DNA of 64,000 bases from assembly GCA_016209705.1 (NCBI GenBank), contig JACQVR010000134.1:64194-128193 (forward strand), written 5' to 3'. The stretch is from Planctomycetota bacterium (lineage in GTDB: Bacteria; Planctomycetota; MHYJ01; JACPRB01). Under the pieces are notes generated by a model, which did not search any database, had not been told where the DNA came from, and saw only the letters and a list, made by a program, of their open reading frames with translations. Shown in pieces: positions 12,243-45,240 of this stretch (position 1 is its first letter; the number at the start of each line of letters is the position of its first letter). Made by a program: the position numbers and the translations under genes.

Positions 12243-12261
12243 ACTTCCAGTATATCATACT

Positions 12262-12513: not shown

Positions 12514-12595
12514 AGCATAGGGATCGGCATAGCAGCGACGTCTACCGCTGGCTCGGGCGGCATCGACGCCGACGTTGCCAGATTCCGAGTCATCG

Positions 12596-26631: not shown

Positions 26632-28314
26632 TCAAGGAAAGTCTTGATGGCGTAACCCAGACATGGGTTCGTCGCCGCCTCGGCGATCGGGAGGGGCCAG
26701 GACCGCTTGGAATGACGCAAGGAAGTTTTCCAGCGCGCCGTCCCCCGATCCGGAGATGACCCGGAATATGAACCAGTCCGTGCGCCGTCCCGCCAGGCGC
26801 CGCAGGGTATCCCGCAGCAGCATATCCGCGAATGTCGCGTGGACTTCCGAGCCGTCGGTGAACCAGAAACAGAGGGTCGTTTCGGCGACGCCTTTGCGAA
26901 GGCGCATCAACGTCATCGGGACGGTCCGGCCGTTCCCCAGGGAACGCGCTTCCACGCCCGTCCGTATCGGTTCCCATCCGTCGCCCGTCAAGCAGTAAGC
27001 CGGAGGATGGGCCCGGTGGCGATCTCCACCCGTCGAACTCACAAGCACGTCCACCACGTCACCGGCTAGCGTGTATCGCCGGGCCCACACGCGTCCCCGA
27101 CCGAAGTGCTCCTCCTCGCTGCTCGGAATCTCGCGGTCGCGGCCGACCCACTCACCCTGGAGATAGCTCATCTCCAACCTGGTTTCATCGAATCCTTCCC
27201 ACGAAATTCCGTAGTAATAAGTCTGAAACGCCGCGAGGAGGGCGGTCAGAACCGCTTGAACGGGAAGGAGACGGGGAGCCCGCGGGGCAGGCGGGGCGGG
27301 CGTCAGCCTGAAATAGGGGATCCTCAGGGCGGCCAGGAGTCCCGCGGCCAGCGCGGCCTTGATCATCAGGCTCGCTTTCAAGGTCATGCCGACTCCCAAG
27401 CTCACCAAGCCGAGCTGGTACGACGTGGTGGGGAAACCCAGATACGCGACGAGAGCTAGAAGCGCCGCCGATCGAGCGAAACGAATTCCTTTGATCGATA
27501 GGCCGAGAGACAGCAACGCGCCCATCAGTGAGATCCCCTTGAGGATGTTCACGTCGATGAGCGTCGCGAGGAGCAGGGCCGCCAAGGACAGACCGAATCC
27601 AACCGTGCCCGCTCGCTCCCACGAGGCGTCGGAGGGCGCGCAGCGCCAGATCCATCCCGCCGCCACCGCCGCGATCGCCACGAACACGTAGCTGAACCGA
27701 TCCAGAGGACTCCGTCCCCACGCGTCCAAGCACCACATGATGAAGGGCGCGCCGAGAAAACCCAGCAGGAGCAGCAGCGCGACCGATATCCATGCGTTAC
27801 CGGCGGCCTGCCGCACCGAAGACCTCGCGAGGCGGCCGGCGATGGCGAAGCATCCCAGCATCGCCAGCGCGAACGCGACGAGACCGACGGCGACATGAAA
27901 CGCGCCGCCGGGTTCGCCTCCGATCGCATGGCCCGCGACCACCAGGACAGACACGCGCAACGCGTTGGCGAGAATCGCCAGTGGCAAGGCCAGCGCTACC
28001 GCTGCCGCGCGGCGCACGGGCGTCAGGCCGGGCTGGACTCCGCACCATGTGATCGCCACGAACAGGAGCGCTTGAAGCGTCGTGGAGCCGCTGCACGCTG
28101 GGACCACATCGAACGTCATGCGGGGCGTCGAGAGGATCGTCCCGTTGCGAGTCACGGCGAGCCCGCCTGCTCCGAGAAGAAAATGGGCGACGGCGGAGGA
28201 AATTTCCCGAAGCGGGAGGGCGATGAAGGGTTCCGCGAGTTCCAAGACGAGGAACACGCCGCCCGCCACCAGGCCGGCCAGGAGCCAGCGTCGTCCCTTC
28301 TCGGAAGACTTCAT
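26632..28314 (-). CDS. Exosortase (XrtA-like) fused to an EpsI-like C-terminal domain
   Basis: An 8-TM N-terminal domain carries the exosortase catalytic motifs (VVPACSGSTTL with Cys, and NALRV with Asn/Arg). A ~200-aa soluble C-terminal domain typical of exosortase-associated EpsI follows. Confidence 0.7.
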   Translation of the reverse strand: MKSSEKGRRWLLAGLVAGGVFLVLELAEPFIALPLREISSAVAHFLLGAGGLAVTRNGTILSTPRMTFDVVPACSGSTTLQALLFVAITWCGVQPGLTPVRRAAAVALALPLAILANALRVSVLVVAGHAIGGEPGGAFHVAVGLVAFALAMLGCFAIAGRLARSSVRQAAGNAWISVALLLLLGFLGAPFIMWCLDAWGRSPLDRFSYVFVAIAAVAAGWIWRCAPSDASWERAGTVGFGLSLAALLLATLIDVNILKGISLMGALLSLGLSIKGIRFARSAALLALVAYLGFPTTSYQLGLVSLGVGMTLKASLMIKAALAAGLLAALRIPYFRLTPAPPAPRAPRLLPVQAVLTALLAAFQTYYYGISWEGFDETRLEMSYLQGEWVGRDREIPSSEEEHFGRGRVWARRYTLAGDVVDVLVSSTGGDRHRAHPPAYCLTGDGWEPIRTGVEARSLGNGRTVPMTLMRLRKGVAETTLCFWFTDGSEVHATFADMLLRDTLRRLAGRRTDWFIFRVISGSGDGALENFLASFQAVLAPPDRRGGDEPMSGLRHQDFP

Positions 28315-31422: not shown

Positions 31423-32169
31423 CTATGTGCGGGAGGCCTTTCGGTTTCGAATGTAAAGGCCCGCCAAACCAAGCCCCAAGAGAGCGAACGCCGCCGGTTC
31501 AGGAACGCCCGGGAAGCGGGGTTCGCTCAGGCTCGTCCCGTACTGGAAATAGACGTCGGCGATTTGAGACAGGTCCCACGAGGGATCCCAGCCGCTCAAC
31601 GTGAAGACGACCGAGTTCGAGATGATCGGCTCGTCGATCAGTCCGCCGTTGGCGGTGGCGGGATTGTCGCCCGCCGTCGTGATGCCGTAATTGACGCCAT
31701 CGGGCGAAGCCGGCGGATCGAGATCATCGCTTGAGAAGCGATCGCCCGGGCCGAACGTGTCGTCCGCTCCAGTCGAGCTGATACCGGAGTTCGAGCCGAA
31801 ATCCATCGCCAGGCTTCCGCTATAAGCCCACTCGCCGCTCACGTCGGGGAAAGCGGCGTCGCCGGCCGCCGTCGCGTTGTAGACGGTCGATCCCGCGGCG
31901 ACGACCGCGCTGACCGGGGTCAGCACGCCCGGTGCGCTGAAGAAAACGGCCGTCAGAATCTGGGAGCTGGTCGTCGGATCGCCGAGGGATGTGTTGGTCA
32001 AGGTAACGATCAGATTGGTTCCCGATGTCTCGAACGTGACGCTGGCCGACAATCCGCCCGGTCCGGTTCCCGTGTACGTGACGAAGTCCGCCCACGCGGC
32101 GGGCGCGGCCGAAAGATACGTTGCACCGACGATGAACGCCGTGACGACCGAAGCGACATGTCGCGACAT
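31423..32169 (-). CDS. PEP-CTERM sorting-domain surface protein (putative exosortase substrate)
   Basis: It has a signal peptide, a Thr/Ser/Gly-rich body and a C-terminal ...GVPEPAAFALLGLGLAGLYIRNRKASRT segment (PEP motif, TM helix, basic tail). Confidence 0.8.
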   Translation of the reverse strand: MSRHVASVVTAFIVGATYLSAAPAAWADFVTYTGTGPGGLSASVTFETSGTNLIVTLTNTSLGDPTTSSQILTAVFFSAPGVLTPVSAVVAAGSTVYNATAAGDAAFPDVSGEWAYSGSLAMDFGSNSGISSTGADDTFGPGDRFSSDDLDPPASPDGVNYGITTAGDNPATANGGLIDEPIISNSVVFTLSGWDPSWDLSQIADVYFQYGTSLSEPRFPGVPEPAAFALLGLGLAGLYIRNRKASRT

Positions 32170-32282
32170 ACGCGCCTCTCCAAAGTTCAGGTTTAACTTT
32201 TTTACGTAAAAGCCGGGCGTCTTGTCAATAGAAATATGATGAAAACATCACCTAAGGCTTGGCCCGCGGACACCGGTACCGC

Positions 32283-33449
32283 TCAGATCAGGAACAACTC
32301 CGCGCGGACGCCAAGCCGCTCCAGGTCCGCTTGGATTTCTTCCTTGTAGATCGGGTTCATGACGATGACCGCGTCGGGACGATATCGCCGCAGAAACTCC
32401 GGCGAGACAATTTCGTGGCCCGAGCCCGCCAAGTACTTTCCATGTTTGTGGGGATTGATATCCACGACGTACTCCAGCTCGTCTCGAATCTCGAGCGTGG
32501 TGAGGTAGGAGACCGCCTTCGATCCCGAACCCCAAACGACGGCGCGCCGGCCCGCCGATCGAAAGCGGTCCAGTTGCCCCCGAAGGCCATCCAGCCTGTC
32601 CGCCACCCACGACTTGAAAAGCTCGATGTCCACGCGCGTCTTCTCGACGGGTTCTTCAATTTCAAAACGCTTTCCATCCGTTCCAGGCCGTGCCTCGATC
32701 ACGAGATATTGGTCGTCGAAGACCTTGTGCAGATCCAGGATCTGGAAGCCGCAGGCGCGGAAAAGACGCGCCAGCGAACCGAGCGTGAAGTACGAGCAGT
32801 GCTCGTAATAGATGTCCCAGAAGGCGTGCTCGGTCAAGACTCTTCCAACATCGGGAACCTCGAAGAAGACGATCGTATCGGGACGGCGATCCAAGGATCG
32901 GCGGATCATCCCGACGAATTCCCGCACGTCGGGAATATGCTCGAGCGTGTGCCGGCAGCAGACGTAGTCGGCCTTCAGATCGCCGAATTTTTCGGAATAC
33001 AGTTCCTGGATAAACTGGATCCGCGCGGCCGTTTCGGCATCGGTGCGCTCCGGCCGGTAACTTGGGTCGATGCCGATTCCGCGATTGTTTCCCATGGCGC
33101 ACATTTGGGACAGGAACTCTCCCTTCCCGCAGCCGATTTCCAGAAGGACCTTGCCGCGGAGGCCATACTTTTCAATCTGGTCGGCGCACAAATCCGTGGC
33201 AAACCGGCGGAACCGCTCGGAAAAGCCCTGCGTTTCTTCGTACTCTGGGGTGTAGCTCAACCGGGCGGGGTCGAAGCGCGTGTTCATGATGAACCCGCAA
33301 TCGCCACAGAATCCGAGGGCCAGGGAACCCCGAGGGAACTTCAGCGCGGCCTCCCGTGTGGAGACCATGAGGCAACTATGAACGGGAACCGGCCCGGTTT
33401 CGTAGAAGAGCTCTACGGCGTTCGAGCCGCAGCTCCGGCATGGCGTCAT
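32283..33449 (-). CDS. Class I SAM-dependent C-methyltransferase with N-terminal Zn-ribbon and C-terminal C-methyltransferase domain (sugar C-methyltransferase-like), paralog 1
   Basis: A CxxC...CxxC zinc ribbon (CRSCGS...CGDCG) is followed by a SAM motif (LLEIGCGKGEF) and a C-methyltransferase C-terminal domain. Confidence 0.7.
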   Translation of the reverse strand: MTPCRSCGSNAVELFYETGPVPVHSCLMVSTREAALKFPRGSLALGFCGDCGFIMNTRFDPARLSYTPEYEETQGFSERFRRFATDLCADQIEKYGLRGKVLLEIGCGKGEFLSQMCAMGNNRGIGIDPSYRPERTDAETAARIQFIQELYSEKFGDLKADYVCCRHTLEHIPDVREFVGMIRRSLDRRPDTIVFFEVPDVGRVLTEHAFWDIYYEHCSYFTLGSLARLFRACGFQILDLHKVFDDQYLVIEARPGTDGKRFEIEEPVEKTRVDIELFKSWVADRLDGLRGQLDRFRSAGRRAVVWGSGSKAVSYLTTLEIRDELEYVVDINPHKHGKYLAGSGHEIVSPEFLRRYRPDAVIVMNPIYKEEIQADLERLGVRAELFLI

Positions 33450-33464
33450 GGCGCGAGCGTGACC

Positions 33465-34697
33465 TTAAACGATTTCAGGAGAGGGGATGGGAATAATGAA
33501 CTTTCCGCCCCGTTTTCGATAATCCTCCTGCTGCTTGATGATCTCGTCCTTGAAGTTCCAGGTGAGCAGCAGCACGTAATCCGGAGCGTCTTCCAGCAGG
33601 CGCTTCGGATGGGCGATGGGCAGGTGCACTCCGGGCATGAGGAGGCCCTGCTTGTGCACATTGCGATCCACGACATAGTCGAGAAGGTCACGCCCGATGC
33701 CCACATAATTGAGAAGGATTGCCCCCTTGGCGGCCGCTCCATAGCCGGCCAGCCTCGCCCCTTTCGCCTTGAGTTCGCGGAGCAGCGACCCCAGCTTTTC
33801 CTTGATGGAGGCGACCCGCCCGGAAAACCCGGCGTAATAATCCAGCGACGTGAGTCCCTGCTCCGTTTCACGACGCACGTAGGCGTCCACGGACTCCCGG
33901 CGGCCGGGAAGCCGTTCCACGAACAACCTCAGCGATCCCCCATGAATGGACAAGGGTTCCACGTGGTTCAAATGGAGATCGTGCCGCCGGAACAACGCCC
34001 TCAAGGAGCTCACGGAGAAGTAGCACAGATGCTCGTGGTAGATGGTGTCGAACTGGCACTGATCGATCAGGTTGGCGACGTACGGAACCTCGAGGACGGC
34101 GAAACCGTGATCCTTCAGAAGGATACGGATCCCGTCGACGAAGCCGCCCGTATCGGCCACGTGCGCCAAGACATTGTTCGCGTGGATCACGTCCGCGCGC
34201 TTGCCTTCCTCGCTCAACCGGACGGCCAGATCGCGGCCGAAGAACTCCAGGAGGGTCGGAACCCCTCGGGCGCGGGCCGCTCGGACCGGGCCTTCGCAGG
34301 GATCGATGCCCAGGACGGGGATCCCGCGTTCCACGTAATACTGAAGAAGATACCCGTCGTTGCTGGCCAACTCGACGACGAGGCTTCTCGAATCCAATCC
34401 GCGCTCGGCGATGCGCGCTTCGACGTTCTTTTTCGAGTGGGCCAGCAGCGCGTCCGAAAAGGAGGAGAAATAGGGATAATCGGCATTGAAGAGTTCCTCC
34501 GGCGGAACCGTTCTGCGGATCTGGACGAGCGTACAATCCGTGCAGAACGCCACGTCGAGAGGATGCCTCGGTTCCGGACGGCCCTCTTCCTCCGGACGGA
34601 TGAGGCGGTCCGCGATCGGCAAATCCCCCAACCGTAGAAACGTCGTCAGCCGGGAGGAGTCGCAGCCGCGGCAACGGTTTCGATCGTTCGAGTTCAA
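33465..34697 (-). CDS. SAM-dependent C-methyltransferase, paralog 2
   Basis: Same architecture as paralog 1 (CRGCDS...CTDC zinc ribbon; [14 protein letters not shown] motif). Confidence 0.7.
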
Positions 34698-34772
34698 GGA
34701 GGAGGATCATATCGTGCGGGGGAGCGAAGTTCCACAAGTTTTGTGACGTTCCCTCAATGCTTGAAAAAAAAA

Positions 34773-34787
34773 TGGAACCTGGTATGC
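34773..34787 (+). promoter_or_regulatory. Candidate sigma-54 (-24/-12) promoter upstream of rfbF
   Basis: TGGAAC-N5-ATGCT has the GG and GC dinucleotides at the canonical spacing, about 55 nt upstream of the rfbF ATG. Confidence 0.3.
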
Positions 34788-34840
34788 TTGGCGGCCTGGG
34801 GCCGGGACGGCGGAATGCATCGAATCCTGAAGGGCGGGGA

Positions 34841-35614
34841 ATGAAAGTCGGAATTCTGGCGGGTGGAGTCGGAACGCGTCTGTCGGAAGAGACCGAGGTC
34901 AAGCCCAAGCCGATGGTGGAGATCGGTGGGAAACCGATCTTATGGCACATCATGAAGATCTATGCGGCGCAGGGGTACAAGGATTTCGTCATCGCGCTGG
35001 GCTACAGAGGCGAGTACATCAAACGTTACATGCTCGACTTCTGCTCCTTGAGCTCGAATCTCACCGTCAACGTTCGCACGGGTGTCGTGGAGAAGGAGAC
35101 GAATGACGGCATCGACGATTGGAGCGTCCGCCTGATCGACACGGGTCTGGAGACGGCCACGGGCGGCCGGATCAAGCGTTTGGCGCCGTACCTGCAAGGG
35201 GAGGGGACGTTCCTGCTCACCTGGGGAGACGGCGTCTTCGACATCGATCTCGGGAAGCTGCTCGCCTTCCATCGTGACCACGGGAAGCTGGCGACGATCG
35301 CCGCCGTTCGCCCTCCAGCGCGCTTCGGCATGATGGAACTGGACGAGGAACGGGTCGTCCGGTACACCGAGAAACCGCAGATCGGAGAGGGTTGGATCAG
35401 CGGGGGGGTTTTCGCCCTCGAACCCGGCATCTTCTCCTACATAGAGGACGACCGTACCCAATGGGAAAAGCAACCGCTGGAGCGGCTCGCAGAAGAGGGG
35501 GAACTGATGGCCTTTAAGCACTACGGCTTCTGGCAATGCATGGACACCCTCCGGGACAAGAAGCATCTCGAGCAGATGTGGGAGTCCAATCCGCCCTGGA
35601 AAATCTGGAGGTAG
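34841..35614 (+). CDS. rfbF: Glucose-1-phosphate cytidylyltransferase
   Basis: MKVGILAGGVGTRLSEETEVKPKPMVEIGGKPILWHIMKIYAAQGYKDFVIALGY... is close to RfbF/DdhA over the full ~257 aa. Confidence 0.85.
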   Translation: MKVGILAGGVGTRLSEETEVKPKPMVEIGGKPILWHIMKIYAAQGYKDFVIALGYRGEYIKRYMLDFCSLSSNLTVNVRTGVVEKETNDGIDDWSVRLIDTGLETATGGRIKRLAPYLQGEGTFLLTWGDGVFDIDLGKLLAFHRDHGKLATIAAVRPPARFGMMELDEERVVRYTEKPQIGEGWISGGVFALEPGIFSYIEDDRTQWEKQPLERLAEEGELMAFKHYGFWQCMDTLRDKKHLEQMWESNPPWKIWR

Positions 35615-35617
35615 CTT

Positions 35618-36718
35618 GTGAAAGTTCTCGTTACCGGCCATGAGGGTTATATCGGGAGTGTCTTGGTGCCGATGCTCCACAGCCACGGCCATGAGGTCGT
35701 GGGGTTGGACAGCGGACTCTTCCGTGTCTGTCTGTTCAACGAACCTCTGCTGAAGGTGAAGAGCCTCACGCTCGACATTCGCGACGTGCGCGAAGAGGAT
35801 CTTCGCGGGTTCGATGCGATCATTCACCTGGCGGGGATCTCCAACGATCCGTTGGGCGATCTCAACCCTAAATGCACCTACGACATCAATCACCGCGCGT
35901 CGGTGCGATTGGCGGAGGTGGCCAAGAAGGCCGGTGTGCCGCGGTTCCTTTATTCCTCTTCGTGCAGTTTGTATGGATCGGCCGGTCGCGATTTCGTGGA
36001 TGAGAACGCTCCGTTCCATCCCGTGACCCCGTATGGGGAATCAAAGGTGAAAGTCGAACTCGACGTCGTCGCGATGGCGGACGACACGTTCTGTCCCACG
36101 TATCTGCGCAACGCCACCGCCTATGGGGTCTCGCCGCGGCTTCGGGGAGACCTCGTAGTGAACAACCTGAGCGGGTACGCGTACACGATCGGAACCGTGC
36201 TCCTCAAGAGCGACGGGACCCCGTGGCGCCCTCTGGTCCACATCGAAGACATCTCCCGCGCATTCCTCGCCGTGCTCCACGCTCCGTGGGATGCCGTGTA
36301 CAACGCCGCCTTCAACGTCGGCTCCACCGAAGAGAACTATCAGATTCGCGACGTGGCACGGATGGTGCAAGAGGTCTTCCCGGGCAGCGTCATCGCCTTC
36401 GGGCCGGGCGCCGGCCCCGACAAGCGGGACTACCGGGTGAACTGCGACAGGATCCAAACGGTCCTGCCGGAATTCAAACCTCAGTGGACGGTGCGCCGGG
36501 GGATCGAGGAACTCTGCGAGGCCTTCAAGAAGAAGCGGCTTACGCGGGAGGAATTTGAGAGCTCCCGCTATCTGCGGATCAAACACGTGCTCGACCTGCG
36601 GCAACGTGGCGAGTTGGATGAAAACTTGCGGTGGACGAAGGCGGTCGCGGCGGGGGCTTCCGCGGGGCCGGCGGATCCTTCCCCGGGCGTGACCCCCGCG
36701 GGTACAAGACGGGATTAA
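35618..36718 (+). CDS. NAD-dependent epimerase/dehydratase family protein (extended SDR)
   Basis: The product has a GxxGxxG motif ([10 protein letters not shown]) and a YxxxK catalytic motif (PYGESK). It sits immediately downstream of rfbF, 3 bp apart. Confidence 0.75.
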
Positions 36719-36768
36719 GAACCTATCTTCGCAGGCATCGTGGCCGCGGCGGTGAAGAAACCGGCCCA

Positions 36769-37956
36769 ATGGATCGCTACGACCTGATCATTATCGGCGG
36801 CGGGGTGATCGGCGTCGCCGCGGCGCGCGCCGCGGCGAAGAAGCGGTCGGGTTTGTCCATCTGCCTCTTGGAAAAAGAATCGGAGCTCGCCGCGCATCAG
36901 AGCGGCCGCAATAGCGGCGTGGCGCACGCCGGATACATCCCCAAACCCGGAACGCTGAAAGCAAAATTCGTCGTCGAGGGCTCCCGCCGGTTGCGCGCAT
37001 TCTGCCGGGACCGGGCGGTTCCTCTCGTCGAGGACGGCATTTTGGTGGTGGGGCGGCGCGACCAGGAGCGGACGTTGCGCGAACTGATCGACCGCGGCAC
37101 GCGGAACGGCGCTCAGGTGGAGTGGGTGGAGGGTACGCGGCTGCGGGAACTGGAATCTCACGCGCGGGCCGAGTGCGGCGTCTTCGCGCGCGAAGGGGCG
37201 AGCTTCGACGCGCGCGCCTACGTCCGCGCGTTGTCCCGGGAGGCCGGCGCCGACATCGCGCTTTCGGAACCGGCGCTCCGATGCCGCGAAACGTCCCGCG
37301 GGGTCGAAATCCAGACGCCACGCCGCACGCTGTCGGCCCGTGCGTTGCTCAATGCCGCGGGCCTTCACGCCGACCGGATCGCGCATCAATTTGGGGTAGG
37401 CCGGCAGTACGCGATCGTTCCGTTCCGCGGGGAGTATTGGGAGCTGACCGGTCCGTCCCGAGACCTGGTGCGGTCTCACCTATATCCATGTCCCGATCTC
37501 CGCTTTCCATTCCTCGGCGTTCATCTATCACGCAAGACGAATGGCCGCGTCGTGGCCGGCCCCGGCGCGGTATTGGCGCCGGGTCGGGAGGCCTATCGCC
37601 GATTTGAATTCGGCGGTCGCGATGTTCTCGACATGGTCCGCTGGCGGGGTTTGAGACGGATGGCGCAGTCAAGCGTGTTCCGGGAGCTGGTCCGGCGCGA
37701 ATGGCGCAAGAGCCTGTTCCCATCCGCGGTGCTCGCCGAGATCCGGCGTCTGGTGCCTGAGGTTCGGGGCGCCGACCTGACTCCTTATCCCTCGGGGATT
37801 CGGGCGCAACTCGTCTCCCGCGAAGGCGATCTCGTGGACGATCTGGTCGTCTTGGAAACGGCGCGTACCGTCCATGTGTTGAACGCCGTCAGTCCGGCGC
37901 TGACCTGCTCGCTTCCATTCGCGGACTACCTGGAGCGGATGCTTCAGGACAAATAG
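36769..37956 (+). CDS. FAD-dependent oxidoreductase, L-2-hydroxyglutarate oxidase (LhgO)-like
   Basis: MDRYDLIIIGGGVIGVAAARA...LLEKESELAAHQSGRNSGVAHAGYIPKPGTLKAKF matches the LhgO/DAO family N-terminus. Confidence 0.65.
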   Translation: MDRYDLIIIGGGVIGVAAARAAAKKRSGLSICLLEKESELAAHQSGRNSGVAHAGYIPKPGTLKAKFVVEGSRRLRAFCRDRAVPLVEDGILVVGRRDQERTLRELIDRGTRNGAQVEWVEGTRLRELESHARAECGVFAREGASFDARAYVRALSREAGADIALSEPALRCRETSRGVEIQTPRRTLSARALLNAAGLHADRIAHQFGVGRQYAIVPFRGEYWELTGPSRDLVRSHLYPCPDLRFPFLGVHLSRKTNGRVVAGPGAVLAPGREAYRRFEFGGRDVLDMVRWRGLRRMAQSSVFRELVRREWRKSLFPSAVLAEIRRLVPEVRGADLTPYPSGIRAQLVSREGDLVDDLVVLETARTVHVLNAVSPALTCSLPFADYLERMLQDK

Positions 37957-37970
37957 ATCGTCGGCGGATG

Positions 37971-38960
37971 CTACCGGTTTGTGACATTCCGGGAAGGATT
38001 CGAATCCCGTGCCGCCGGCGAGGCCTCGGATGGAATGCTCGCGCTGCCGTCGTTCGGAGGGTTGATGAGGCGAACGAGCCGCCGCCTCAGGAATCCGAGA
38101 CCCCGCCGCATGAAGCGGAATAGGCTCTCAAAGACGAAGTGACAGACAATCGTTGCTTGGCAGCACAGCTTGAGCCCGGGCCCGAAGGACTGCTTTCGCA
38201 CCAGAGACGCGAATCCAAGGTACATGTCGGTTCGGGAGTAGGTCATGTCTCTGGTAAAGCTGCTGTGGTATCGAGGGAGGAGGATTTCGGGCCCTTCTCC
38301 CGCCCGGCGCCTAGTTACAAGACATTCATGGACGTGGCAGAAGGGGCCCAGGAGGCAGAGCTCAATGGCGAGGTGGCGGTCGGTCCAGGGATCGATGGGA
38401 AGCAGATTGGTCCTGTGCAGGCTAGAGCTTCGCAACATGCTGTAGATCGGGTCGAAAAAGAGCCGATCCGCCCGCATGAACCACAACGCCCGCGAGAGAC
38501 GCCTCCAGACATAGGGGGAATCCACCCGTCTGCCCGTGTATTCTCGGAAGTGGACGGTATTGTCGTCATCCACTAGGCGCCAGAGCGTCGTGACTCCGAC
38601 CGCTTCTGTGTGGGCGTCCAAACTCGCGACGCACTTCCGCAGATAGGAAGGTTCCAGCCGGTCATCCACCCCGAGCCACCGGAAATACTCCCCGCGGGAG
38701 AGTCCGAAGACCCGGTTGAAGTTTCCGATCTGACCGAGATCTGCGTCGTTCCGGTGATAGCAGAAGTGGCGATCCCGGGCGGTGAATTCCCTGGCGATCG
38801 CCTCCGTCTTGTCAGTCGAGGCGTTGTCGGAGATGATGGCCTCATAATCGTCGTAGTCCTGGCACGCGATGGACTCCAGGGCCGCCCTCAAGAATCGTTC
38901 GCCATTTCGGACGGGAATCCCGATGCTGACTTTCGGCCGGCATCCGGCATCCTTGCTCAA
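37971..38960 (-). CDS. Family 2 glycosyltransferase
   Basis: GT2 signatures: VSIGIPVRNGERFLRAALESIACQDYDDYEAIISDNASTD. Confidence 0.75.
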   Translation of the reverse strand: MSKDAGCRPKVSIGIPVRNGERFLRAALESIACQDYDDYEAIISDNASTDKTEAIAREFTARDRHFCYHRNDADLGQIGNFNRVFGLSRGEYFRWLGVDDRLEPSYLRKCVASLDAHTEAVGVTTLWRLVDDDNTVHFREYTGRRVDSPYVWRRLSRALWFMRADRLFFDPIYSMLRSSSLHRTNLLPIDPWTDRHLAIELCLLGPFCHVHECLVTRRRAGEGPEILLPRYHSSFTRDMTYSRTDMYLGFASLVRKQSFGPGLKLCCQATIVCHFVFESLFRFMRRGLGFLRRRLVRLINPPNDGSASIPSEASPAARDSNPSRNVTNR

Positions 38961-39323
38961 GGTGTGTTCTCCTCTGCGGTTGGTGGACTTCAGGGTGTGA
39001 TCAAAATCGGTTTCCTCTCTAACGCGGAGGCTATCATAGCTTCAACGCTGCTTCGGGCCAATCGCCGGATGTCGCGCAAGGCAGCGAAGCTGGGATCTCA
39101 TCTGGCATTCCGGCTTGCTTTCTTCATGGACATCCCCTCGAATCGGCTCATATTACCCATAGCGAAACTTGGTGTACTGTGCCATTCGCAAGCATCCTGG
39201 CTTGAGCGGGTTACGACAGCTCCCCCCATGAGATATCCAACACGATGGTCAATAAGGCGTTGTAGCATTTGTAAGTACCGAGCAAATCAGGACAGTGGAC
39301 ATCTCCAAGGAGAGGCGGTAGAA

Positions 39324-40613
39324 ATGGCCAAGGTAGCGTCCCCTATTCCCCATGCAGCGGGAAAGATCATGGTTGGCGTCGGTATTGAATGCCGAGGCCA
39401 GCGTCCTTCTCGTGTCGGCGCGAAGCTGAAAGGAGTCCTTAACGTGGCTGCCTGCCCGTTGTGCGCGTCCGGCGACGTATCGTTTTTTTTCGAAATGAAG
39501 GATGTGCCGACTGGCATCAATTTCCCGTGCGCGAGCGCGAGAGAAGCGTTGGACGGTCCCCGCGGGGACATCCGTCTGGCCTTCTGCCCGCGATGCGGAC
39601 TCATCAGCAACATCGATTTCGATTCGACGCGACTCCGGTATGGAGTCGGCTACGAGAACACACTTCACTTTTCCGAAGTCTTTCGGAGGTATGCTGAAGC
39701 CACCGCGGACCGACTGATCGCCCAGTTCGAGCTTCGCGGCAAGGACATAATCGAGATCGGTTGTGGGCGCGGCGATTTTCTGCGCTTGCTGTGCGAGCGG
39801 GGCGGGAACCGCGGGGTCGGTTTCGATCCAAGCCATGCTGGATCGTCCGAGGGCCCTCCTCCCTTGGATCGGATTCGATTCGTCCCCGACGCCTACTCGG
39901 AGCGTTACGTCGATTACGCCGCCGATTTTGTCGTGAGCCGGCACACCCTTGAGCACGTCCAGCAGCCGGCGGATCTGCTGGGGCCGCTTCGGCGGTCGAT
40001 CGGGGACCGTCTCGATACCGCGGTCTTCTTCGAGGTACCTAACACAACTTTCATCCTTAGAAATCGATACGTCTGGGACATCATCTACGAACACCCCTGC
40101 TACTTCACGGGGCCCTCGCTCAGGGCTGCCTTTGAACGTTCGGGTTTCCGGGTTCTCGAAACCTACGATGCGTTTGAGGGGCAATATCTGTGCGTCGAGG
40201 CGTATCCGTCAGAAGGCGATGAGCGTACCGAGACCGGGGTCGAAGGGCTCGACCAGGTCCGTTCGGACATCGAATCGTTCGAGATGGCTTATCAGCGCTA
40301 TGTGGCCGAATGGAAGGACAATCTGCGCTCCCTCGCGACGGCGCGAAACCGGGTCGTCTTGTGGGGGGCCGGATCGAAGGGCATCACCTTCTTGAACCTC
40401 TTTCGCGGCGCCGCCCCGATTCGCCACGTCGTCGATATCAATCCCTTGAAACACGGCAGCTTTGTCGCCGGCAGCGGGCAAGAGATCGTGCCGCCCGAAT
40501 TTTTGGTCGATCATCCCGTCGACACCGTCATTGTGGCGAACCCGATTTATGGACGGGAAGTGACGGCGGCGACTCATCGGCTCGGTCTGAGCCCCGAGTT
40601 CCTATATCTTTGA
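39324..40613 (+). CDS. SAM-dependent C-methyltransferase, paralog 3
   Basis: Same Zn-ribbon, methyltransferase and C-methyltransferase C-terminal architecture (CPLCAS...CPRCG; IIEIGCGRGDF). The start is placed at the ATG with an AAGGAGAG ribosome-binding site; the six-frame ORF opens at 38610. Confidence 0.7.
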   Translation: MAKVASPIPHAAGKIMVGVGIECRGQRPSRVGAKLKGVLNVAACPLCASGDVSFFFEMKDVPTGINFPCASAREALDGPRGDIRLAFCPRCGLISNIDFDSTRLRYGVGYENTLHFSEVFRRYAEATADRLIAQFELRGKDIIEIGCGRGDFLRLLCERGGNRGVGFDPSHAGSSEGPPPLDRIRFVPDAYSERYVDYAADFVVSRHTLEHVQQPADLLGPLRRSIGDRLDTAVFFEVPNTTFILRNRYVWDIIYEHPCYFTGPSLRAAFERSGFRVLETYDAFEGQYLCVEAYPSEGDERTETGVEGLDQVRSDIESFEMAYQRYVAEWKDNLRSLATARNRVVLWGAGSKGITFLNLFRGAAPIRHVVDINPLKHGSFVAGSGQEIVPPEFLVDHPVDTVIVANPIYGREVTAATHRLGLSPEFLYL

Positions 40614-40858
40614 AGTTGAAACCATCGGGAATTCGAGCCGCCGTCTCGACTCGATGACGCGCGTTCAGCCCATGGCGAAACACTTCCGCCGGTTCGAATG
40701 AAACTTTATTTAACTTACCCGGGCGCATGATACGCTCTTCCTTCCCGTTGCGAGGAAAAGTCTCTGGAAGGGCGAATCGAGCGGAGCACGTCGGCTGGGC
40801 GCCTCCTTTTTGTCGTCTGGATCCGGAAGTTCTTCGGTCGTAGGGCAATGAGGAGAAC

Positions 40859-40886
40859 TTGACGTGGCAAGGGTGGATTATATAAA
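40859..40886 (+). promoter_or_regulatory. Candidate sigma-70-type promoter upstream of the priming sugar transferase
   Basis: TTGACG, a 16-nt spacer and TATAAA lie in a locally AT-rich ~330-bp leader, about 65 nt upstream of the start at 40950. Confidence 0.3.
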
Positions 40887-40949
40887 ATTGAACTTTATGG
40901 ATCAGGGGCGGGAAACCGGCTTGACGACCAAGCCACCAAGGATCCGGGC

Positions 40950-42377
40950 ATGTTGAAGCAATATGCCAAAGTTGTTCAAGCCGTGTTGTTCCTGAGCGAT
41001 CTTGCGATCACCGGCGTCGCGTTTTTCGGCGCGTACGTACTTTTTCAATCTCACATCGCCTCGTTGCCCTACTTCGGCCGCCTGGGCGACTTGAATGAAT
41101 ATCTGTGGCTGTTGCTCCTGATCCTGCCCGTATGGGCGCTGTTGCTTCAGGCGGGCGGGGTGTACCACCGCTCGCAGCGGATCGCGCCGCTGGCGGGGGA
41201 GCTGTGGAGAACGGCGCGGGCGGTTCTCTTGGGCGGCCTGGTTCTGTTCGCGTTCATCGCGCTGGCGAAGTTGAGCCACATCTCTCGCCCGTTCATCCTC
41301 TTCTTCATGGTCCTGGACATCGGTTTTCTGTTGTTTTTCAAGACGGCCGTTCGGGTGTTCGCCAGGTCGATGCGGGCTCGCGATCTCAACGTCCGGACCG
41401 TCCTGATCGTGGGCACGGGGAAGACCGCGCTGGAGATCGCGAACCGGATCGCCGCCAACCGCCAGTGGGGATTCAGGCTGCTGGGGTATGTCGCCGAGGA
41501 CACGGGGCCGTCCGATCTGATCGGCGATCGACGCCCCGTGCTGGGCGCCCTGGCGGACATTTCACGGCTGCTGCGCGAGCACGTGGTGGACGAGGTCATC
41601 GTGGCGGTGGAGCGGGAGCAGATTCCCGAGATGGAAGGGCTGTTCCTCCTGTGCGAGACGCTGGGGGTGAACGCGCGGCTGGCGGTGGAGTTCTTTCCGC
41701 ATCGAATCGCGCGCGTGGATCTCGAGGATCTGGACGGGATCCCCATGCTGACGTTTTCGACCACGCCCAAGAACGTCTGGGCGCTGGCGACCAAGCGGGC
41801 GGTCGACATCGCGGCGGCGTCGATATTCCTGGCGGCCTTCTCCTGGCTTTACCTGTTGATCGCGCTCCTGGTGCGGGCGACGTCGCCGGGGCCGATCTTC
41901 TTCCGCCAGCAGCGCGTGGGCCTCAACGGACGGCGGTTCACGTTCTACAAGTTCCGCTCCATGATCGCGGATGCGGAACAGCGGCGCACCCAGGTGGCCC
42001 ACCTCAACGAAATGGACGGACCCGTATTCAAGATACACAACGATCCGCGAGTCACTCCCGTGGGGCGCTTTTTGCGGAAATTCAGCCTCGACGAGTTCCC
42101 CCAGATGTGGAACGTGCTTCGGGGGGACATGAGCCTGGTGGGACCGCGTCCGCCTCTGCCGTCCGAAGTGGACCTGTACGAGCTGTGGGAGCGCCGCCGG
42201 CTGAGCGTCCGGCCGGGACTCACCTGCCTCTGGCAAGTGGAGGGGCGCAACGGGATCGGGTTCAAGGAATGGATGAAACTCGATCTGGCGTACATCGACA
42301 ACTGGTCGCTGGCGCTGGACCTGAAGATCCTCTTGAAGACCGTTCCGGTGATCCTGACGGGGCGGGGGGCGAGTTAG
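40950..42377 (+). CDS. Polyprenyl-phosphate sugar phosphotransferase (WbaP/EpsL-type priming bacterial sugar transferase)
   Basis: N-terminal TM helices, a central CoA-binding-like region and the C-terminal bacterial sugar transferase domain (PGPIFFRQQRVGLNGRRFTFYKFRSM...DEFPQMWNVLRGDMSLVGPRP). Confidence 0.85.
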   Translation: MLKQYAKVVQAVLFLSDLAITGVAFFGAYVLFQSHIASLPYFGRLGDLNEYLWLLLLILPVWALLLQAGGVYHRSQRIAPLAGELWRTARAVLLGGLVLFAFIALAKLSHISRPFILFFMVLDIGFLLFFKTAVRVFARSMRARDLNVRTVLIVGTGKTALEIANRIAANRQWGFRLLGYVAEDTGPSDLIGDRRPVLGALADISRLLREHVVDEVIVAVEREQIPEMEGLFLLCETLGVNARLAVEFFPHRIARVDLEDLDGIPMLTFSTTPKNVWALATKRAVDIAAASIFLAAFSWLYLLIALLVRATSPGPIFFRQQRVGLNGRRFTFYKFRSMIADAEQRRTQVAHLNEMDGPVFKIHNDPRVTPVGRFLRKFSLDEFPQMWNVLRGDMSLVGPRPPLPSEVDLYELWERRRLSVRPGLTCLWQVEGRNGIGFKEWMKLDLAYIDNWSLALDLKILLKTVPVILTGRGAS

Positions 42378-42421: not shown

Positions 42422-42452
42422 TGTTACGATTAATTCTCAAAATTATTTGTAA
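42422..42452. repeat. 31-nt palindromic element GTTACGATTAATTCTCAAAATTATTTGTAAC (family copy C)
   Basis: Same unit as at 6857/6888. It lies between convergent genes and overlaps the 3' end of the MBL-rhodanese ORF. Confidence 0.6.
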
Positions 42453-43507
42453 CAGTCCCTCCAGCGGGCCATGCCTCCGGTGAGGACGCGGACGTTGGCG
42501 TGACCGGCCCCCAGCAGGATCTGCGCCGCCACCGCCGCTCGCATGCCTACCTTGCAGATCGTGATCACCTCGCGATCCTTGAATGGGGCGAGCTCGCCGA
42601 CGCGCTCCTCCAGCGAGCCGAGCGGGATGTGCGTGATTCCGTTCAGGTGGCCGAGCTCCCCCTCGAGCTCCTCGGGCTCGCGGACATCGAGAAGGATCAA
42701 TCCCGCCGGACGTTCCAGCCGCGCTCGCAACTCCTCGGCGGTGATCGAGGGCGCCGGAAAAGCGGCGGTATCCGCAGCGACCTCGCAGGCGCACCCCTCC
42801 TGGGGGATCCAGACGGCCTTGGGATCGCGGGTTCCCTCGTGGTTGGCCTTGAGCACCGCCTTCATCCAATCGGCGGGTCCGAGGCGCAGGGTCTCGAGGT
42901 ACCGGATGAACTCCGCCTTCTCGCGGCGACTGAGGTGGGGGTTCCGCTTGCCCTGGACGGCGAGCGTCGTGGGACGCCGGCCGCGATACTCGTGACCCGG
43001 ATAAACCACGAGATGATCGGGAAGGCCGAGGATCCGCTGCAAGCTGTCCCAGTGCTCGCCGGGATCGCCGCCGGGAAGGTCGTCACGGCCCGCTCCTCCG
43101 TCGTCCAGAAAGAGCGTATCTCCGGTGAGGATCCGATCGGGAAAGACGAGGCAGATGGAGTCCTTCGTATGGCCCGGCGTGTGCAGGACCGTGACGTCCA
43201 GATCTCCCAACGGCGAGGCCGATCCTTCGACGATGCGGGACGTCACCGACCGGGGAGAACCGCGGACGTGCATCACGTACGCGCAGCCGGTCGCCTCCTT
43301 CAGCGCGGTGCCGGCGGATAGATGATCCGCGTGGGTGTGGGTGTCGATGACGTGCGTCAACTTCAGGCGCTCGTTCTCGATCAGCGCGAGATAGTCTTCC
43401 AAGGCGTCCAACACGGGATCCACGAGGACTGCGTCGGCGGCTCCCTCCGGGCGGATCAGATACGTCTGGCAACCCCGGGAATTGAAAGCCTGGAATCGCA
43501 TTCCCAT
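42443..43507 (-). CDS. MBL-fold persulfide dioxygenase (ETHE1-like) fused to a C-terminal rhodanese domain
   Basis: A metallo-beta-lactamase metal-binding motif (HTHADH) is followed by a rhodanese catalytic-cysteine region (VITICKVGMRAAVAAQIL). Confidence 0.7.
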   Translation of the reverse strand: MGMRFQAFNSRGCQTYLIRPEGAADAVLVDPVLDALEDYLALIENERLKLTHVIDTHTHADHLSAGTALKEATGCAYVMHVRGSPRSVTSRIVEGSASPLGDLDVTVLHTPGHTKDSICLVFPDRILTGDTLFLDDGGAGRDDLPGGDPGEHWDSLQRILGLPDHLVVYPGHEYRGRRPTTLAVQGKRNPHLSRREKAEFIRYLETLRLGPADWMKAVLKANHEGTRDPKAVWIPQEGCACEVAADTAAFPAPSITAEELRARLERPAGLILLDVREPEELEGELGHLNGITHIPLGSLEERVGELAPFKDREVITICKVGMRAAVAAQILLGAGHANVRVLTGGMARWRDCYK

Positions 43508-43511
43508 GACA

Positions 43512-43898
43512 CTACCAATACCAGATCCGGTCGTGGCGTGCGAATAGATCGGGGATGGCGCTTTTCTTCACGACCTCCACGCCGCTCATCAGCCGATCCT
43601 TCGGCACGCCCCGGGAGGCGAGATCTTCCTCGACGGCGTAGAGGTCGATGCCTTTGCCCTTCAGCATCTCGAGGTCGTCGAGGATCCGAGGCGGCGGATC
43701 GAGCGCGAGGTCGCCGATTCGGAGTCCGCCGGCGTCCTGGCCCCGGACCAGATAGTTGACCGCGTTGCCGCGGAGGAGGATCGATTGTTCCAGGTTTCCC
43801 TGCACCTTCATCGCCAGCGAGAACCAAAGGGCGACGTCGTCTTGTTCTTCCAGCGTCGCGTGATAGGCCCGCTCCACGACGTTCAGAGTTTTTCCCAT
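43512..43898 (-). CDS. DsrE/DsrF-like sulfur-relay family protein
   Basis: A 128-aa product of YchN-like size with a DsrF/TusC-like pattern. It sits in an operon with two further DsrE/H-like genes. Confidence 0.5.
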   Translation of the reverse strand: MGKTLNVVERAYHATLEEQDDVALWFSLAMKVQGNLEQSILLRGNAVNYLVRGQDAGGLRIGDLALDPPPRILDDLEMLKGKGIDLYAVEEDLASRGVPKDRLMSGVEVVKKSAIPDLFARHDRIWYW

Positions 43899-43901
43899 GG
43901 C

Positions 43902-44300
43902 TCACCTCGTCGGAATGACCAGGACATTCGTGCTCGCGGCGGCCGCTTTCACGAAGTCGCCCGGCGTGCCGCGCTTGGCGCCCGCAACCATGTTTCCCTC
44001 GCTGCCGCGCTCGTCCGCGCACAGGCCGCAGTAGGTCCATTCGAGCTGGCCCTGCGCCAGAAGCCCTTCGACCCACGCCTTCGTCGTGGGATGGTTCTGC
44101 ACCTTGACGTCCGCGCATCCCTTCGGCGCGTTGGCGTGCGGCTTCTGCGTCGCGACGGTCAGCGACACGGCTCCTTCGTACGCGAAGACGCTGACCTTGA
44201 TCCCTTTCTTCTGCGCCTCGCTGATGATCCGAAACGCGGTCGTGGTCGTCTCCGACTCGTACGGCGGATCCATCAGCAGGAGCGTGAGCTGTTTTTGCAT
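43902..44300 (-). CDS. DsrE/TusD-like sulfur-relay family protein
   Basis: The start is taken at MQKQLTLLLMDPPYESETTTTAFRI (133 aa) with a GGGAGG ribosome-binding site. A conserved cysteine lies in the region ...WTYCGLCADERG. Confidence 0.55.
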   Translation of the reverse strand: MQKQLTLLLMDPPYESETTTTAFRIISEAQKKGIKVSVFAYEGAVSLTVATQKPHANAPKGCADVKVQNHPTTKAWVEGLLAQGQLEWTYCGLCADERGSEGNMVAGAKRGTPGDFVKAAAASTNVLVIPTR

Positions 44301-44314
44301 CGCACCCTCCCGAA

Positions 44315-44638
44315 TCAATGCCAGAGCGTCCGGACGTCCGGCTGCGCCAGCAGGTCCACGAAGTCGCCCATTCCCGCGACCTTGACGTCCGGCACGAGGT
44401 CGCCGTCGACGATGCCTCGCTGGCGAAGCGAGAAATCGTCCGCGAGAACCGAGACCCCGGCGAGCTGCGGGACCCGGCCGCCCGAGAAGCCGCGGCGCGC
44501 GGCGAAGACGCCGTTCTGCACCAGGACGAGCGTGACGTCGTGCCCCGCTCCCTTCAGATCCCGTGCCAGATCGTAGAACTCGTTCACCGCGGTCGCTTCC
44601 TGCGGATCGCGGGATTCCCACAGCAGATAGCGGGTCAT
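44315..44638 (-). CDS. DsrH/TusB-like small sulfur-relay protein
   Basis: The start is taken at MTRYLLWESRDP (107 aa) with a GAGGAGGAGG ribosome-binding site. It is the first gene of the minus-strand operon. Confidence 0.45.
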   Translation of the reverse strand: MTRYLLWESRDPQEATAVNEFYDLARDLKGAGHDVTLVLVQNGVFAARRGFSGGRVPQLAGVSVLADDFSLRQRGIVDGDLVPDVKVAGMGDFVDLLAQPDVRTLWH

Positions 44639-44727
44639 AGATCCTCCTCCTCGAAGCGCGTGATGGGAGGAGTGTACCGCGGCAACCCAAGCATGGGTAA
44701 AGAAATTCGCCGCCTCGCCAGGAAAGG

Positions 44728-45240
44728 TTACCGCGGTGGCGCGCCGCTTTCGTCGGGCGGGCGATTCAGGAATCCGCGGCACGCGCGGGCGCCGCAGCGG
44801 CAGGCGAGGAGCGGGGTATCCCCGGTGATGCGGTAGTCGAGAAGAAGTTCCTCACCGGCCTCGATGGGGCGCAGGCTGACGAGCAGGACGCGTCCCTTGC
44901 GGACGCGCGCGACGAGGTTGGGTTCGCAGCCATGGTTGATGAATTCGGCGCCGCTTCCCCGGATGGCTCCATCGATGGCCCGCCGCCGGCTGACCCAGAA
45001 GACATACATTCGGGGACGCAGGCGTCTCCGGTACACCTCGTCCCGGCCGATCCGCTCCCCCGTATATTCGATCACCCGCCGTCGCGCGGGAATCGGTTCG
45101 GCCGCGAAGAGGCCCCAGCGATCGATGCGCGACCGGCCGAACTTCAGCTTGTAGCGGCACGCGGCGGGATCCAGGCGCGGCACCACCTCGGGTCCGCCGG
45201 GGAGGAGCACCTCGCGGACGAAGGCGGTCCGTTCGGCCAT
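44728..45240 (-). CDS. SET-domain protein (putative protein-lysine methyltransferase)
   Basis: SET motifs are present (GSGAEFINHGCEPNLVARV...GEELLLDY) plus a Cys-rich post-SET region (CRCGARACRG). Confidence 0.75.
   Translation of the reverse strand: MAERTAFVREVLLPGGPEVVPRLDPAACRYKLKFGRSRIDRWGLFAAEPIPARRRVIEYTGERIGRDEVYRRRLRPRMYVFWVSRRRAIDGAIRGSGAEFINHGCEPNLVARVRKGRVLLVSLRPIEAGEELLLDYRITGDTPLLACRCGARACRGFLNRPPDESGAPPR

Follow-up and report, generated by a model that had tools for sequence, protein, structure and literature searches.

The GDP-heptose C4-dehydrogenase of Campylobacter jejuni, Cj1427, carries tightly bound NADH that is oxidised by alpha-ketoglutarate, giving L-2-hydroxyglutarate (L-2-HG), and the 4-keto sugar it releases goes to the epimerase Cj1430 and the reductase Cj1428 (PMC10680097). 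In Pseudomonas aeruginosa, the nucleotide-sugar 3-dehydrogenase WbpB, also with tightly bound NADH, reduces 2-ketoglutarate to D-2-hydroxyglutarate (D-2-HG), is inhibited by this product and depends on D2HGDH for normal O-antigen (PMC8651671). A third arrangement for comparison is ddhA-ddhB-SMb21418 of Sinorhizobium meliloti (PMC4053727). Here we analyse a 64,000-nucleotide stretch of DNA from a Planctomycetota bacterium (contig JACQVR010000134.1, positions 64,194 to 128,193; hereafter the window), in which an exosortase-linked exopolysaccharide (EPS) locus holds genes for a glucose-1-phosphate cytidylyltransferase (RfbF), a Cj1427-like short-chain dehydrogenase/reductase (SDR), an L-2-HG oxidase (LhgO), a family 2 glycosyltransferase (GT2) and three sugar C-methyltransferase homologues (MT-A, MT-B and MT-C).

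We consider it reasonably probable that this cassette builds a CDP-activated, C-methyl-branched hexose for the EPS, and that an alpha-ketoglutarate/L-2-HG shuttle closed by LhgO resets the SDR. From the gene identities, residue conservation, synteny and LhgO association described below, we infer the catalytic steps, their regiochemistry and the final sugar as follows. RfbF would make CDP-glucose, and the SDR, acting like Cj1427, would oxidise C4 with a tightly held NAD+ and release CDP-4-keto-glucose with its 6-hydroxyl kept. MT-B would methylate C3 through the enolate beside the ketone, as TylC3, TcaB9 and MtmC do, and MT-A and MT-C would add more methyl groups, C5 being the other enolisable carbon. 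The enzyme-bound NADH could reduce alpha-ketoglutarate to L-2-HG, chemistry that is shown for Cj1427, or could be returned to the methylated keto-sugar, the cassette having no separate 4-ketoreductase. LhgO would re-oxidise L-2-HG to alpha-ketoglutarate, with the electrons passing to quinone or O2. The pair would in this way serve as a catalytic redox shuttle, which keeps the SDR in its NAD+ form, pulls an unfavourable oxidation and removes an inhibitory metabolite. Finally, GT2 would transfer the sugar into the exosortase-linked EPS.

The cassette and its methyltransferases

Gene calls combined a listing of open reading frames (ORFs) with profile scans (hidden Markov models, HMMs) at curated Pfam and NCBIfam cut-offs. 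They recovered, within the same limits, every gene named in an initial annotation made from the sequence alone; the GT2 gene (37971-38960, minus strand; PF00535, 88 bits), which lies between LhgO and MT-C and is a candidate transferase for the modified sugar, was missing from that account. RfbF (RfbF/DdhA family) occupies an ORF at 34757-35614 on the plus strand, with a probable start at 34841 (MKVGILAGG) that gives 257 aa, a length as in homologues. Its product scores 339.4 bits against TIGR02623 over model positions 1-255 of 255. Since this exceeds the equivalog cut-off of 300.25, the CDP-activated sugar that had been predicted earlier is upheld, and equivalog membership argues that RfbF makes CDP-glucose.

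Homologues of the SDR were sought in one genome per species, which gave at least 600 loci, and the SDR clade is present in at least 600 species. The best 80 loci were analysed by tblastn with the window proteins, and 67 of them, each with at least 4 kb downstream of the SDR, were informative. RfbF, the SDR and MT-B stand in this order in 43 of the 67, from more than 15 phyla (RfbF 57-69% and MT-B 50-65% identical to the window proteins); further MT-A/C-type genes number none in seven of these loci, one in 12, two in 23 and four in one. The RfbF orthologues, 258 aa long, lie directly upstream of the SDR, and SDR homologues are 56-71% identical across phyla. MT-A is the orthologue of the gene after MT-B in colinear cassettes, where orthologues 45-61% identical to it are found, and MT-C is the orthologue of the last gene. 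A GT2 related to that of the window often comes after the methyltransferases, and members of its homologue cluster (cluster 6) are found with the cassette in about 26 further loci. The RfbF-SDR-MT order also appears in precomputed gene calls of Dehalococcoidia and Alphaproteobacteria metagenome-assembled genomes (MAGs).

The window thus carries a rearranged copy of a five-gene cassette (RfbF, SDR, MT-B, MT-A, MT-C, usually with GT2), in which MT-A and MT-B are inverted, on the minus strand and divergent from rfbF, and LhgO and GT2 are inserted before MT-C. The initial annotation had called three C-methyltransferases in one EPS locus unusual. Because the colinear cassette (RfbF-SDR-MT-B-MT-A(-MT-C)) recurs in those 43 loci, three are instead the norm, the usual content of an arrangement conserved across more than 15 phyla. 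In the cassette (32000-36000 and 38000-42000) about 0.59-0.61 of the bases are G+C, and 0.65 in the 36-38 kb bin, against 0.64-0.68 in the flanks; the lower value fits a horizontal origin of the cassette, whose proteins are 57-71% identical between phyla. In a further 16 loci (type 2), an RmlC-type 3,5-epimerase (PF00908, 211 bits) accompanies the SDR together with a different nucleotidyltransferase. The SDR clade also crosses domains: a window-clade SDR (59% identity) is found in a Euryarchaeota MAG (L055, 10001-13940), where its neighbours are an MT-B-like gene, an RmlC-like gene, a divergent nucleotidyltransferase, a PIG-L deacetylase and a DUF4910 protein.

The methyltransferases had been described at the outset as three paralogous TylC3-type enzymes with zinc ribbons. 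For MT-B (33465-34697, minus strand, 410 aa) this description is apt: it is a canonical protein of the TylC3/TcaB9/MtmC type, with all three Pfam domains above cut-off (PF08421 at 77.6 bits against 31.3, PF13489 at 60 bits and PF08484 at 195 bits against 23.5). Its matches in the Protein Data Bank (PDB) are MtmC (4rv9, E 4e-87), and TcaB9 and the 'sugar 3-C-methyl transferase' entries 5t64/5t6b, which we take to be KijD1 (E 1e-69 to 1e-77). MT-A (32283-33449, minus strand, 388 aa; four-Cys zinc ribbon, class I S-adenosylmethionine domain, C-terminal Methyltransf_14) and MT-C (39444-40613, plus strand, 389 aa) fit it less well. They are 42% identical to each other, and each is 25-29% identical to MT-B over the full length. 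MT-A matches MtmC over its full length at E 1e-26 (97 bits) and MT-C at E 7e-18 (68 bits); PF13489 scores 92 and 81 bits, and PF08484 55 and 37 bits (cut-off 23.5), respectively. The PF08421 zinc ribbon falls below the Pfam cut-off in both (19.7 and 12.4 bits), although all four cysteines align with the zinc ligands of TcaB9.

The TcaB9 residues Tyr76, His181, Tyr222, Glu224 and His225 have catalytic roles known from mutagenesis. In an alignment with TcaB9 and MtmC, all five equivalents are conserved in MT-A and MT-B; MT-C keeps those of Tyr76, His181, Glu224 and His225 and has Ile at the Tyr222 position, with a Tyr one residue later. The sole significant full-length PDB relatives of MT-A and MT-C are the same sugar C-methyltransferases. 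Since all three proteins keep the zinc cysteines and the equivalents of Tyr76, His181, Glu224 and His225, they do not cluster with polyketide or tRNA methyltransferases. The best PDB matches of all three, sugar 3-C-methyltransferases, and the retained TcaB9 residues likewise bear out the C-methyl branching pathway that the initial annotation had proposed. Homology and the conserved catalytic residues argue that MT-B is a nucleoside diphosphate (NDP)-hexose 3-C-methyltransferase, acting on an NDP-4-keto sugar; MT-A and MT-C are best described as divergent NDP-hexose C-methyltransferase homologues. The family PF22674 ('C2185-like_N'), listed for MT-A/C homologues in precomputed tables, gave 14 bits against a cut-off of 27 in a direct scan and was disregarded.

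It is possible, if on the unlikely side, that MT-A, MT-C or both are not nucleotide-sugar C-methyltransferases, and that they O-methylate the sugar or modify the finished polymer, for instance as a chain-end cap. This would account for the gene numbers, since C3 and C5 alone are enolisable beside a C4 ketone, yet up to five methyltransferase genes occur per cassette (L031), and it would suit the distance of both proteins from characterised enzymes. Some cassettes, moreover, adjoin Wzm/Wzt(Wzt_C) ABC exporters, and exporters of the Wzt_C type recognise chain-end caps. Both proteins, however, keep the zinc ribbon, the nucleotide-sugar-binding C-terminal domain and the His181/Glu224/His225 enolate set of TcaB9, and we prefer to regard them as further C-methyltransferases of the pathway. 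In the Acidimicrobiia locus L031 (11091-17295), the five genes stand in a row (MT-B, MT-A and three of the MT-C type), beyond the two enolisable positions beside a C4 ketone.

LhgO beside a Cj1427-like SDR

The SDR (35618-36718, plus strand) is proposed to be a CDP-glucose C4-dehydrogenase. Its best solved relative is 6vo6/6vo8, entries whose titles name Cj1427 (E 2e-37; 132 bits, against 67 for the next match), and the same entries are the top Foldseek match (TMt 0.85) of its AlphaFold model (pLDDT 83). It carries the invariant motifs TGHxGYIG, SSSCSxYG and YGESK, and has in common with Cj1427 a DKRDY motif and the signature RxATxxGxSPRxRxDxxVN (core SPR(L/M)RxD(L/V)xVN), which to our knowledge is absent from GalE. 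By analogy, the SDR may be a ping-pong C4-dehydrogenase like Cj1427, with tightly bound NADH that converts alpha-ketoglutarate to L-2-HG. GDP-D-glycero-D-manno-heptose is not its expected substrate: no GmhA, HddA or HddC was found in the window and the partner nucleotidyltransferase is RfbF, so the SDR would work like Cj1427 without being its orthologue.

As the SDR lacks dehydratase machinery and is closest to the non-dehydrating Cj1427, its product is likely a released 4-keto hexose with the 6-hydroxyl retained, and not the deoxysugar that had been envisaged initially. The gene context supports a released keto-sugar. TylC3-type C-methyltransferases and RmlC-type epimerases both need a 4-keto substrate, and the former follow the SDR in 43 of the 67 informative loci and the latter accompany it in 16 others, mirroring the succession of Cj1427 and Cj1430. 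Profile scans of the 64-kb window found no second SDR, RmlC/cupin epimerase or aminotransferase, and most type-1 cassettes likewise lack a second SDR.

The flavoenzyme gene (36769-37956, plus strand) encodes a member of the LhgO/L2HGDH family, scoring 361.8 bits on NF008726 against an equivalog cut-off of 299 and matching dmL2HGDH (8w75) at E 1e-65. In dmL2HGDH, Ser88, His92, Tyr289, Leu299, His302 and Arg393 contact 2-oxoglutarate (2-OG)/L-2-HG, and their mutation abolishes or impairs activity (PMC10726252). Each of the six is retained by the window LhgO and by every SDR-adjacent LhgO (the L040 protein is incomplete at a contig end). The flavoenzyme, judged by its sequence, is therefore a genuine LhgO and not a new sugar oxidase. 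The suggestion that it acts on the nucleotide sugar, for which loss or retention of the L-2-HG-binding residues had been set beforehand as the test, has to be given up. Nor is the gene an unrelated neighbour: it starts 51 bp past the SDR stop on the same strand, the gap holds no terminator-like site in a scan that performed at shuffle level, and LhgO recurs beside Cj1427-like SDRs. The two genes are probably co-transcribed.

This recurrence can be quantified. LhgO lies within the cassette or its flank in seven of the 80 SDR-centred loci (L012, L040, L043, L045, L065, L066 and L078), which belong to Acidimicrobiia, Gemmatimonadaceae, Solirubrobacterales, Acidobacteriaceae, Cyanobacteria and Anaerolineae, five or six phyla. 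These proteins score 469-590 bits on the LhgO model. With every genome assumed to be 3 Mb with one LhgO, at most 0.44 such genes are expected in the 1.31 Mb covered (Poisson P ≤ 4e-7). Four of the seven loci carry no methyltransferase, so LhgO tracks the SDR. The seven LhgOs are only 34-40% identical to that of the window and occupy varied positions, which suggests that LhgO was recruited independently in different loci.

A reverse search, in which metagenomes were scanned with the window LhgO and the 80 resulting loci searched for cassette proteins, extended the association to other SDRs. One locus (L102) has LhgO, a 65-bp gap, an SDR 55% identical to Cj1427 (TNS loop) and then a GT2; its 83% identical relative (L166) shows the same LhgO-SDR arrangement, with a flavoenzyme at 514 bits on the LhgO model. 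In L160, LhgO is 46 bp upstream of a Cj1427-like SDR of a third clade, in a cluster that has a GmhA-like SIS protein and a Gmd-like SDR. In L106/L107, a window-clade SDR is divergent from LhgO, with an MT-B-like gene alongside. LhgO thus adjoins Cj1427-like SDRs of three clades, and it is absent from three other Cj1427-clade loci sampled. Over the cases of adjacency taken together, six have an LhgO-SDR gap of 39-274 bp. The association is recurrent but facultative, at about one locus in ten, and LhgO likely recurs beside these SDRs because this type of SDR makes L-2-HG as a by-product.

Several observations weigh against the shuttle and against a Cj1427-like SDR. Some 90% of the homologous cassettes have no LhgO within 10 kb, and alpha-ketoglutarate recycling must therefore come from an unlinked gene or not be obligatory. 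The LhgO most like that of the window (63% identical, L086) also stands in a polysaccharide locus, yet no such SDR is present within 7 kb of it. The SDR itself is only 30-32% identical to Cj1427, and when structure alone is compared in Foldseek, the scores of GalE-type 4-epimerases and MoeE5 come close to that of Cj1427. Moreover, Cys116 of the SSSCSxYG loop is absent from Cj1427, in which the active-site loop reads TNS and not SSSCS; this cysteine is invariant in 16 aligned homologues, the SSSCSxYG motif occurs in at least 71 of the 83 locus SDRs, and both hint at extra or different chemistry such as epimerisation. The position presumably corresponds to that of the cysteine which serves GDP-fucose synthase and GDP-mannose 3,5-epimerase as acid/base in epimerisation. 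His8 of the SDR is noted alongside Cys116.

The two observations on LhgO would be expected if it were a housekeeping gene here by chance and the SDR redox-neutral, with the same bound NADH reducing the methylated product and alpha-ketoglutarate playing no role. Self-reduction by the SDR is plausible because the cassette has no separate reductase. We nevertheless judge this account unlikely: LhgO adjoins the SDR in at least seven of the 80 loci where at most 0.44 are expected, in several phyla and three SDR clades that include a close relative of Cj1427, and in the window the short gap after the SDR has no terminator-like site. A redox-neutral cycle and a reset by alpha-ketoglutarate are, besides, compatible.

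The structural likeness to GalE-type enzymes, and the fact that GalE is the best-scoring NCBIfam model for the SDR, would fit a plain CDP-hexose 4-epimerase or 4-ketoreductase, with the keto-sugar for the methyltransferases supplied by an unlinked enzyme. The GalE score is, however, 97 bits against a cut-off of 262. An essential unlinked oxidase is unlikely, because RfbF-SDR-MT-B is transferred between phyla as a self-contained unit (57-69% identity); in type-2 loci the SDR is directly followed by RmlC-type epimerases, whose substrate has to be a free 4-keto sugar; and the LhgO association would be left unexplained. We regard such an enzyme as quite improbable. Least probable, and largely refuted, is the initial proposal that the SDR is the missing CDP-glucose 4,6-dehydratase of a multiply C-methylated 6-deoxysugar pathway whose flavoenzyme acts on the nucleotide sugar: RfbF, dehydratase and 3-C-methyltransferase would indeed be the classical order, as in ddhA-ddhB-SMb21418, but the SDR scores 27.3 bits on TIGR02622 (CDP-glucose 4,6-dehydratase; cut-off 278.45), and is also below the cut-offs for dTDP-glucose dehydratase (49 bits against 365) and Gmd (20 against 415), it has SSSCS where 4,6-dehydratases carry an Asp/Glu pair (T-D-E loop), there is no other SDR in the window to take its place, and the flavoenzyme keeps its six L-2-HG/2-OG residues and passes the LhgO cut-off. 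We therefore retain the Cj1427-like dehydrogenase coupled to LhgO as the preferred reading.

The loci examined also yielded observations in their own right. In L086 (1-15182), LhgO overlaps PMT_2 and Capsule_synth genes, near AsnB and a priming phosphoglycosyl transferase (PGT), and an oxidoreductase with the GFO/IDH/MocA fold lies 5 kb off; WbpB/WlbA, in which NADH is likewise recycled with 2-ketoglutarate, has this fold. Six SDR loci encode a protein of about 330 aa (L012 13462-14436, L040 2377-3366, L045 12198-13238, also in L014, L018 and L073), and three of these six belong to the seven that carry LhgO. As an Fe(II)/2OG oxygenase the protein matched too weakly to be used (2OG-FeII_Oxy_5, 20 bits against 27; CytC3, E 0.29). 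L-2-HG inhibits 2OG oxygenases, and the pairing may be meaningful. L166, L167 and L169 (6001-12900), from Chlamydiae-like bacteria and a Gammaproteobacteria MAG, place a true Cj1427-clade SDR in a conserved cluster with a GT2-like protein of about 500-540 aa, a B12-binding radical-SAM enzyme, a GHMP kinase and TPP-dependent E1/transketolase subunits, with a second epimerase in L166. This cluster bears little resemblance to the pathway for capsule heptose in C. jejuni, and in clusters of this type a 287-291-aa protein without a family match fills the LhgO position where LhgO is absent.

The surrounding exosortase locus

The EPS context noted initially is well founded, with an exosortase gene, EpsI and an exosortase-dependent protein beside Wza, a Wzc-like kinase, Wzx, a Wzy-like protein and a priming PGT. 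The exosortase (26632-28314, minus strand) is fused to an EpsI-like domain (PF09721, 102 bits; DUF3485, 50 bits; TIGR04178, 46 bits against a cut-off of 23); its match is limited to the C-terminal half of the model, positions 115-252, and all subtype models, XrtA or other, fall below cut-off. An XDD4-family exosortase-dependent surface protein (31423-32169, minus strand; NF045504, 207 bits against 40) adjoins MT-A. On the other side of the cassette lies the priming polyprenyl glycosylphosphotransferase of the EPS pathway (40950-42377, plus strand; CoA_binding_3 and Bac_transf domains; TIGR03025, 433 bits against 296). The locus further encodes a PrsT-like TPR protein, a deacetylase and GT2 and GT4 enzymes, as well as a WecG/TagA-family glycosyltransferase (21613-23127, minus strand) with a fused C-terminal STAS (anti-sigma-antagonist-type) domain, an unusual architecture that suggests EPS assembly receives a regulatory signal.

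At the left edge of the locus are an IS256-family transposase (10648-11979, plus strand; 314 bits), preceded by a DMSO-reductase-family molybdoenzyme (8257-10500), and a gene-poor, lower-GC stretch (12000-13500). Just past the priming transferase (42443-45240, minus strand) lie a Lactamase_B-rhodanese protein, three DsrE/DsrH-like small proteins and a SET-domain protein. Antisense ORFs of up to 792 aa shadow the cassette genes (32259-34637, plus; 34940-36019, 36041-36769, 36715-37479 and 39249-40184, all minus). Their homologues elsewhere are likewise antisense to conserved genes (clusters 3-5); these ORFs are high-G+C artefacts, which misled a simple GC3-based gene caller. A scan for promoter- and terminator-like sites was near shuffle level (promoter-like 5, against 2.5 ± 1.5; terminator-like 7, against 9.6 ± 3.4), and no shared operator was evident by eye in the divergent intergenic regions 34698-34840 and 38961-39443.

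Significance and comparison with known systems

The known parts of this locus are the Cj1427-type dehydrogenase, the TylC3-type methyltransferases and nucleotide-sugar oxidation coupled to 2-hydroxyglutarate; provisionally, their combination here is new. A full-text literature search, with most subscription papers outside its coverage, found no report of the cassette, of LhgO in glycan clusters or of a link between Cj1427-type enzymes and L-2-HG recycling, and 'unreported' is accordingly provisional. In its broadest form, which we put forward tentatively and hold to be somewhat doubtful, the proposal is that the alpha-ketoglutarate/L-2-HG pair is a dedicated redox shuttle encoded by the operon: the SDR, as a nicotinoprotein sugar dehydrogenase, would hand its hydride to alpha-ketoglutarate, and LhgO would pass it on to the respiratory chain or O2. 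Production of a CDP-4-keto-hexose that keeps its 6-hydroxyl would be driven in this way, and two to five methylations of this intermediate would yield an undescribed polymethylated branched hexose, carried on the surface glycans of several hundred bacterial species and of some archaea.

If the shuttle is real, the alpha-ketoglutarate dependence of Cj1427-type dehydrogenases, so far seen in vitro only, would have an explanation in vivo, and the enzyme that clears L-2-HG would in some bacteria be encoded within the operon that generates it, an L-isomer, gene-clustered counterpart of the WbpB-D2HGDH coupling of P. aeruginosa. For glycochemists, a highly conserved, horizontally mobile cassette would point to a probable new branched, non-deoxy, polymethylated hexose. 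For annotation, a rule would follow: an L-2-HG oxidase in a glycan locus flags a neighbouring nucleotide-sugar dehydrogenase that recycles alpha-ketoglutarate.

Several similarities and differences are found between the window and the described systems. First, S. meliloti SMb21416-21418 likewise has a glucose-1-phosphate cytidylyltransferase, then a keto-sugar-forming SDR and a 3-C-methyltransferase; the window SDR, however, is not a 4,6-dehydratase, so its product should not be a 6-deoxysugar. Second, MT-B has the three-domain architecture and catalytic residues of TylC3, TcaB9, MtmC and KijD1, and MT-A and MT-C have the same fold and key residues but form separate, uncharacterised clades. 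The characterised TylC3-type enzymes act in antibiotic pathways on dTDP-4-keto-2,6-dideoxy (or 3-amino) sugars that arise through a 4,6-dehydratase, whereas here the nucleotide is CDP, the 6-hydroxyl is probably retained and the product would enter a polysaccharide. Third, the window LhgO has the same FAD motif and six substrate-contacting residues as E. coli LhgO (YgaF) and eukaryotic L2HGDH, and a score above the equivalog cut-off. The usual bacterial context of LhgO is glutarate/lysine catabolism (csiD-lhgO-gabDTP) or metabolite repair; the window gene is instead embedded in a nucleotide-sugar operon.

For the D-isomer, WbpB/WlbA with D2HGDH is a direct experimental precedent: a tightly bound NADH is reset by 2-ketoglutarate, and normal polysaccharide output requires a flavoenzyme to re-oxidise the 2-hydroxyglutarate, the logic that the genes suggest here. 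WbpB is an enzyme of the GFO/IDH/MocA fold, whereas the window enzyme has the SDR fold, its presumed by-product is L-2-HG, and the recycling gene stands inside the sugar operon. WbpB, by contrast, oxidises C3 and forms D-2-HG, and clustering of the D2HGDH gene (PA0317) with wbpB is not reported (PMC8651671).

By sequence and fold, Cj1427 is the closest solved relative. Both proteins are extended SDRs without dehydratase residues, with the common SPRxRxDxxVN signature, and both have downstream cluster neighbours that need a free 4-keto sugar. LhgO genes adjoin SDRs of both clades, as would be expected if L-2-HG were a co-product. The window SDR differs in its predicted substrate, CDP-glucose as opposed to GDP-heptose, in its SSSCS loop with an invariant Cys where Cj1427 has TNS, and in its TGHxGYIG glycine motif; its cassette has no NADPH 4-reductase equivalent to Cj1428, and carries C-methyltransferases downstream in place of the cupin epimerase.

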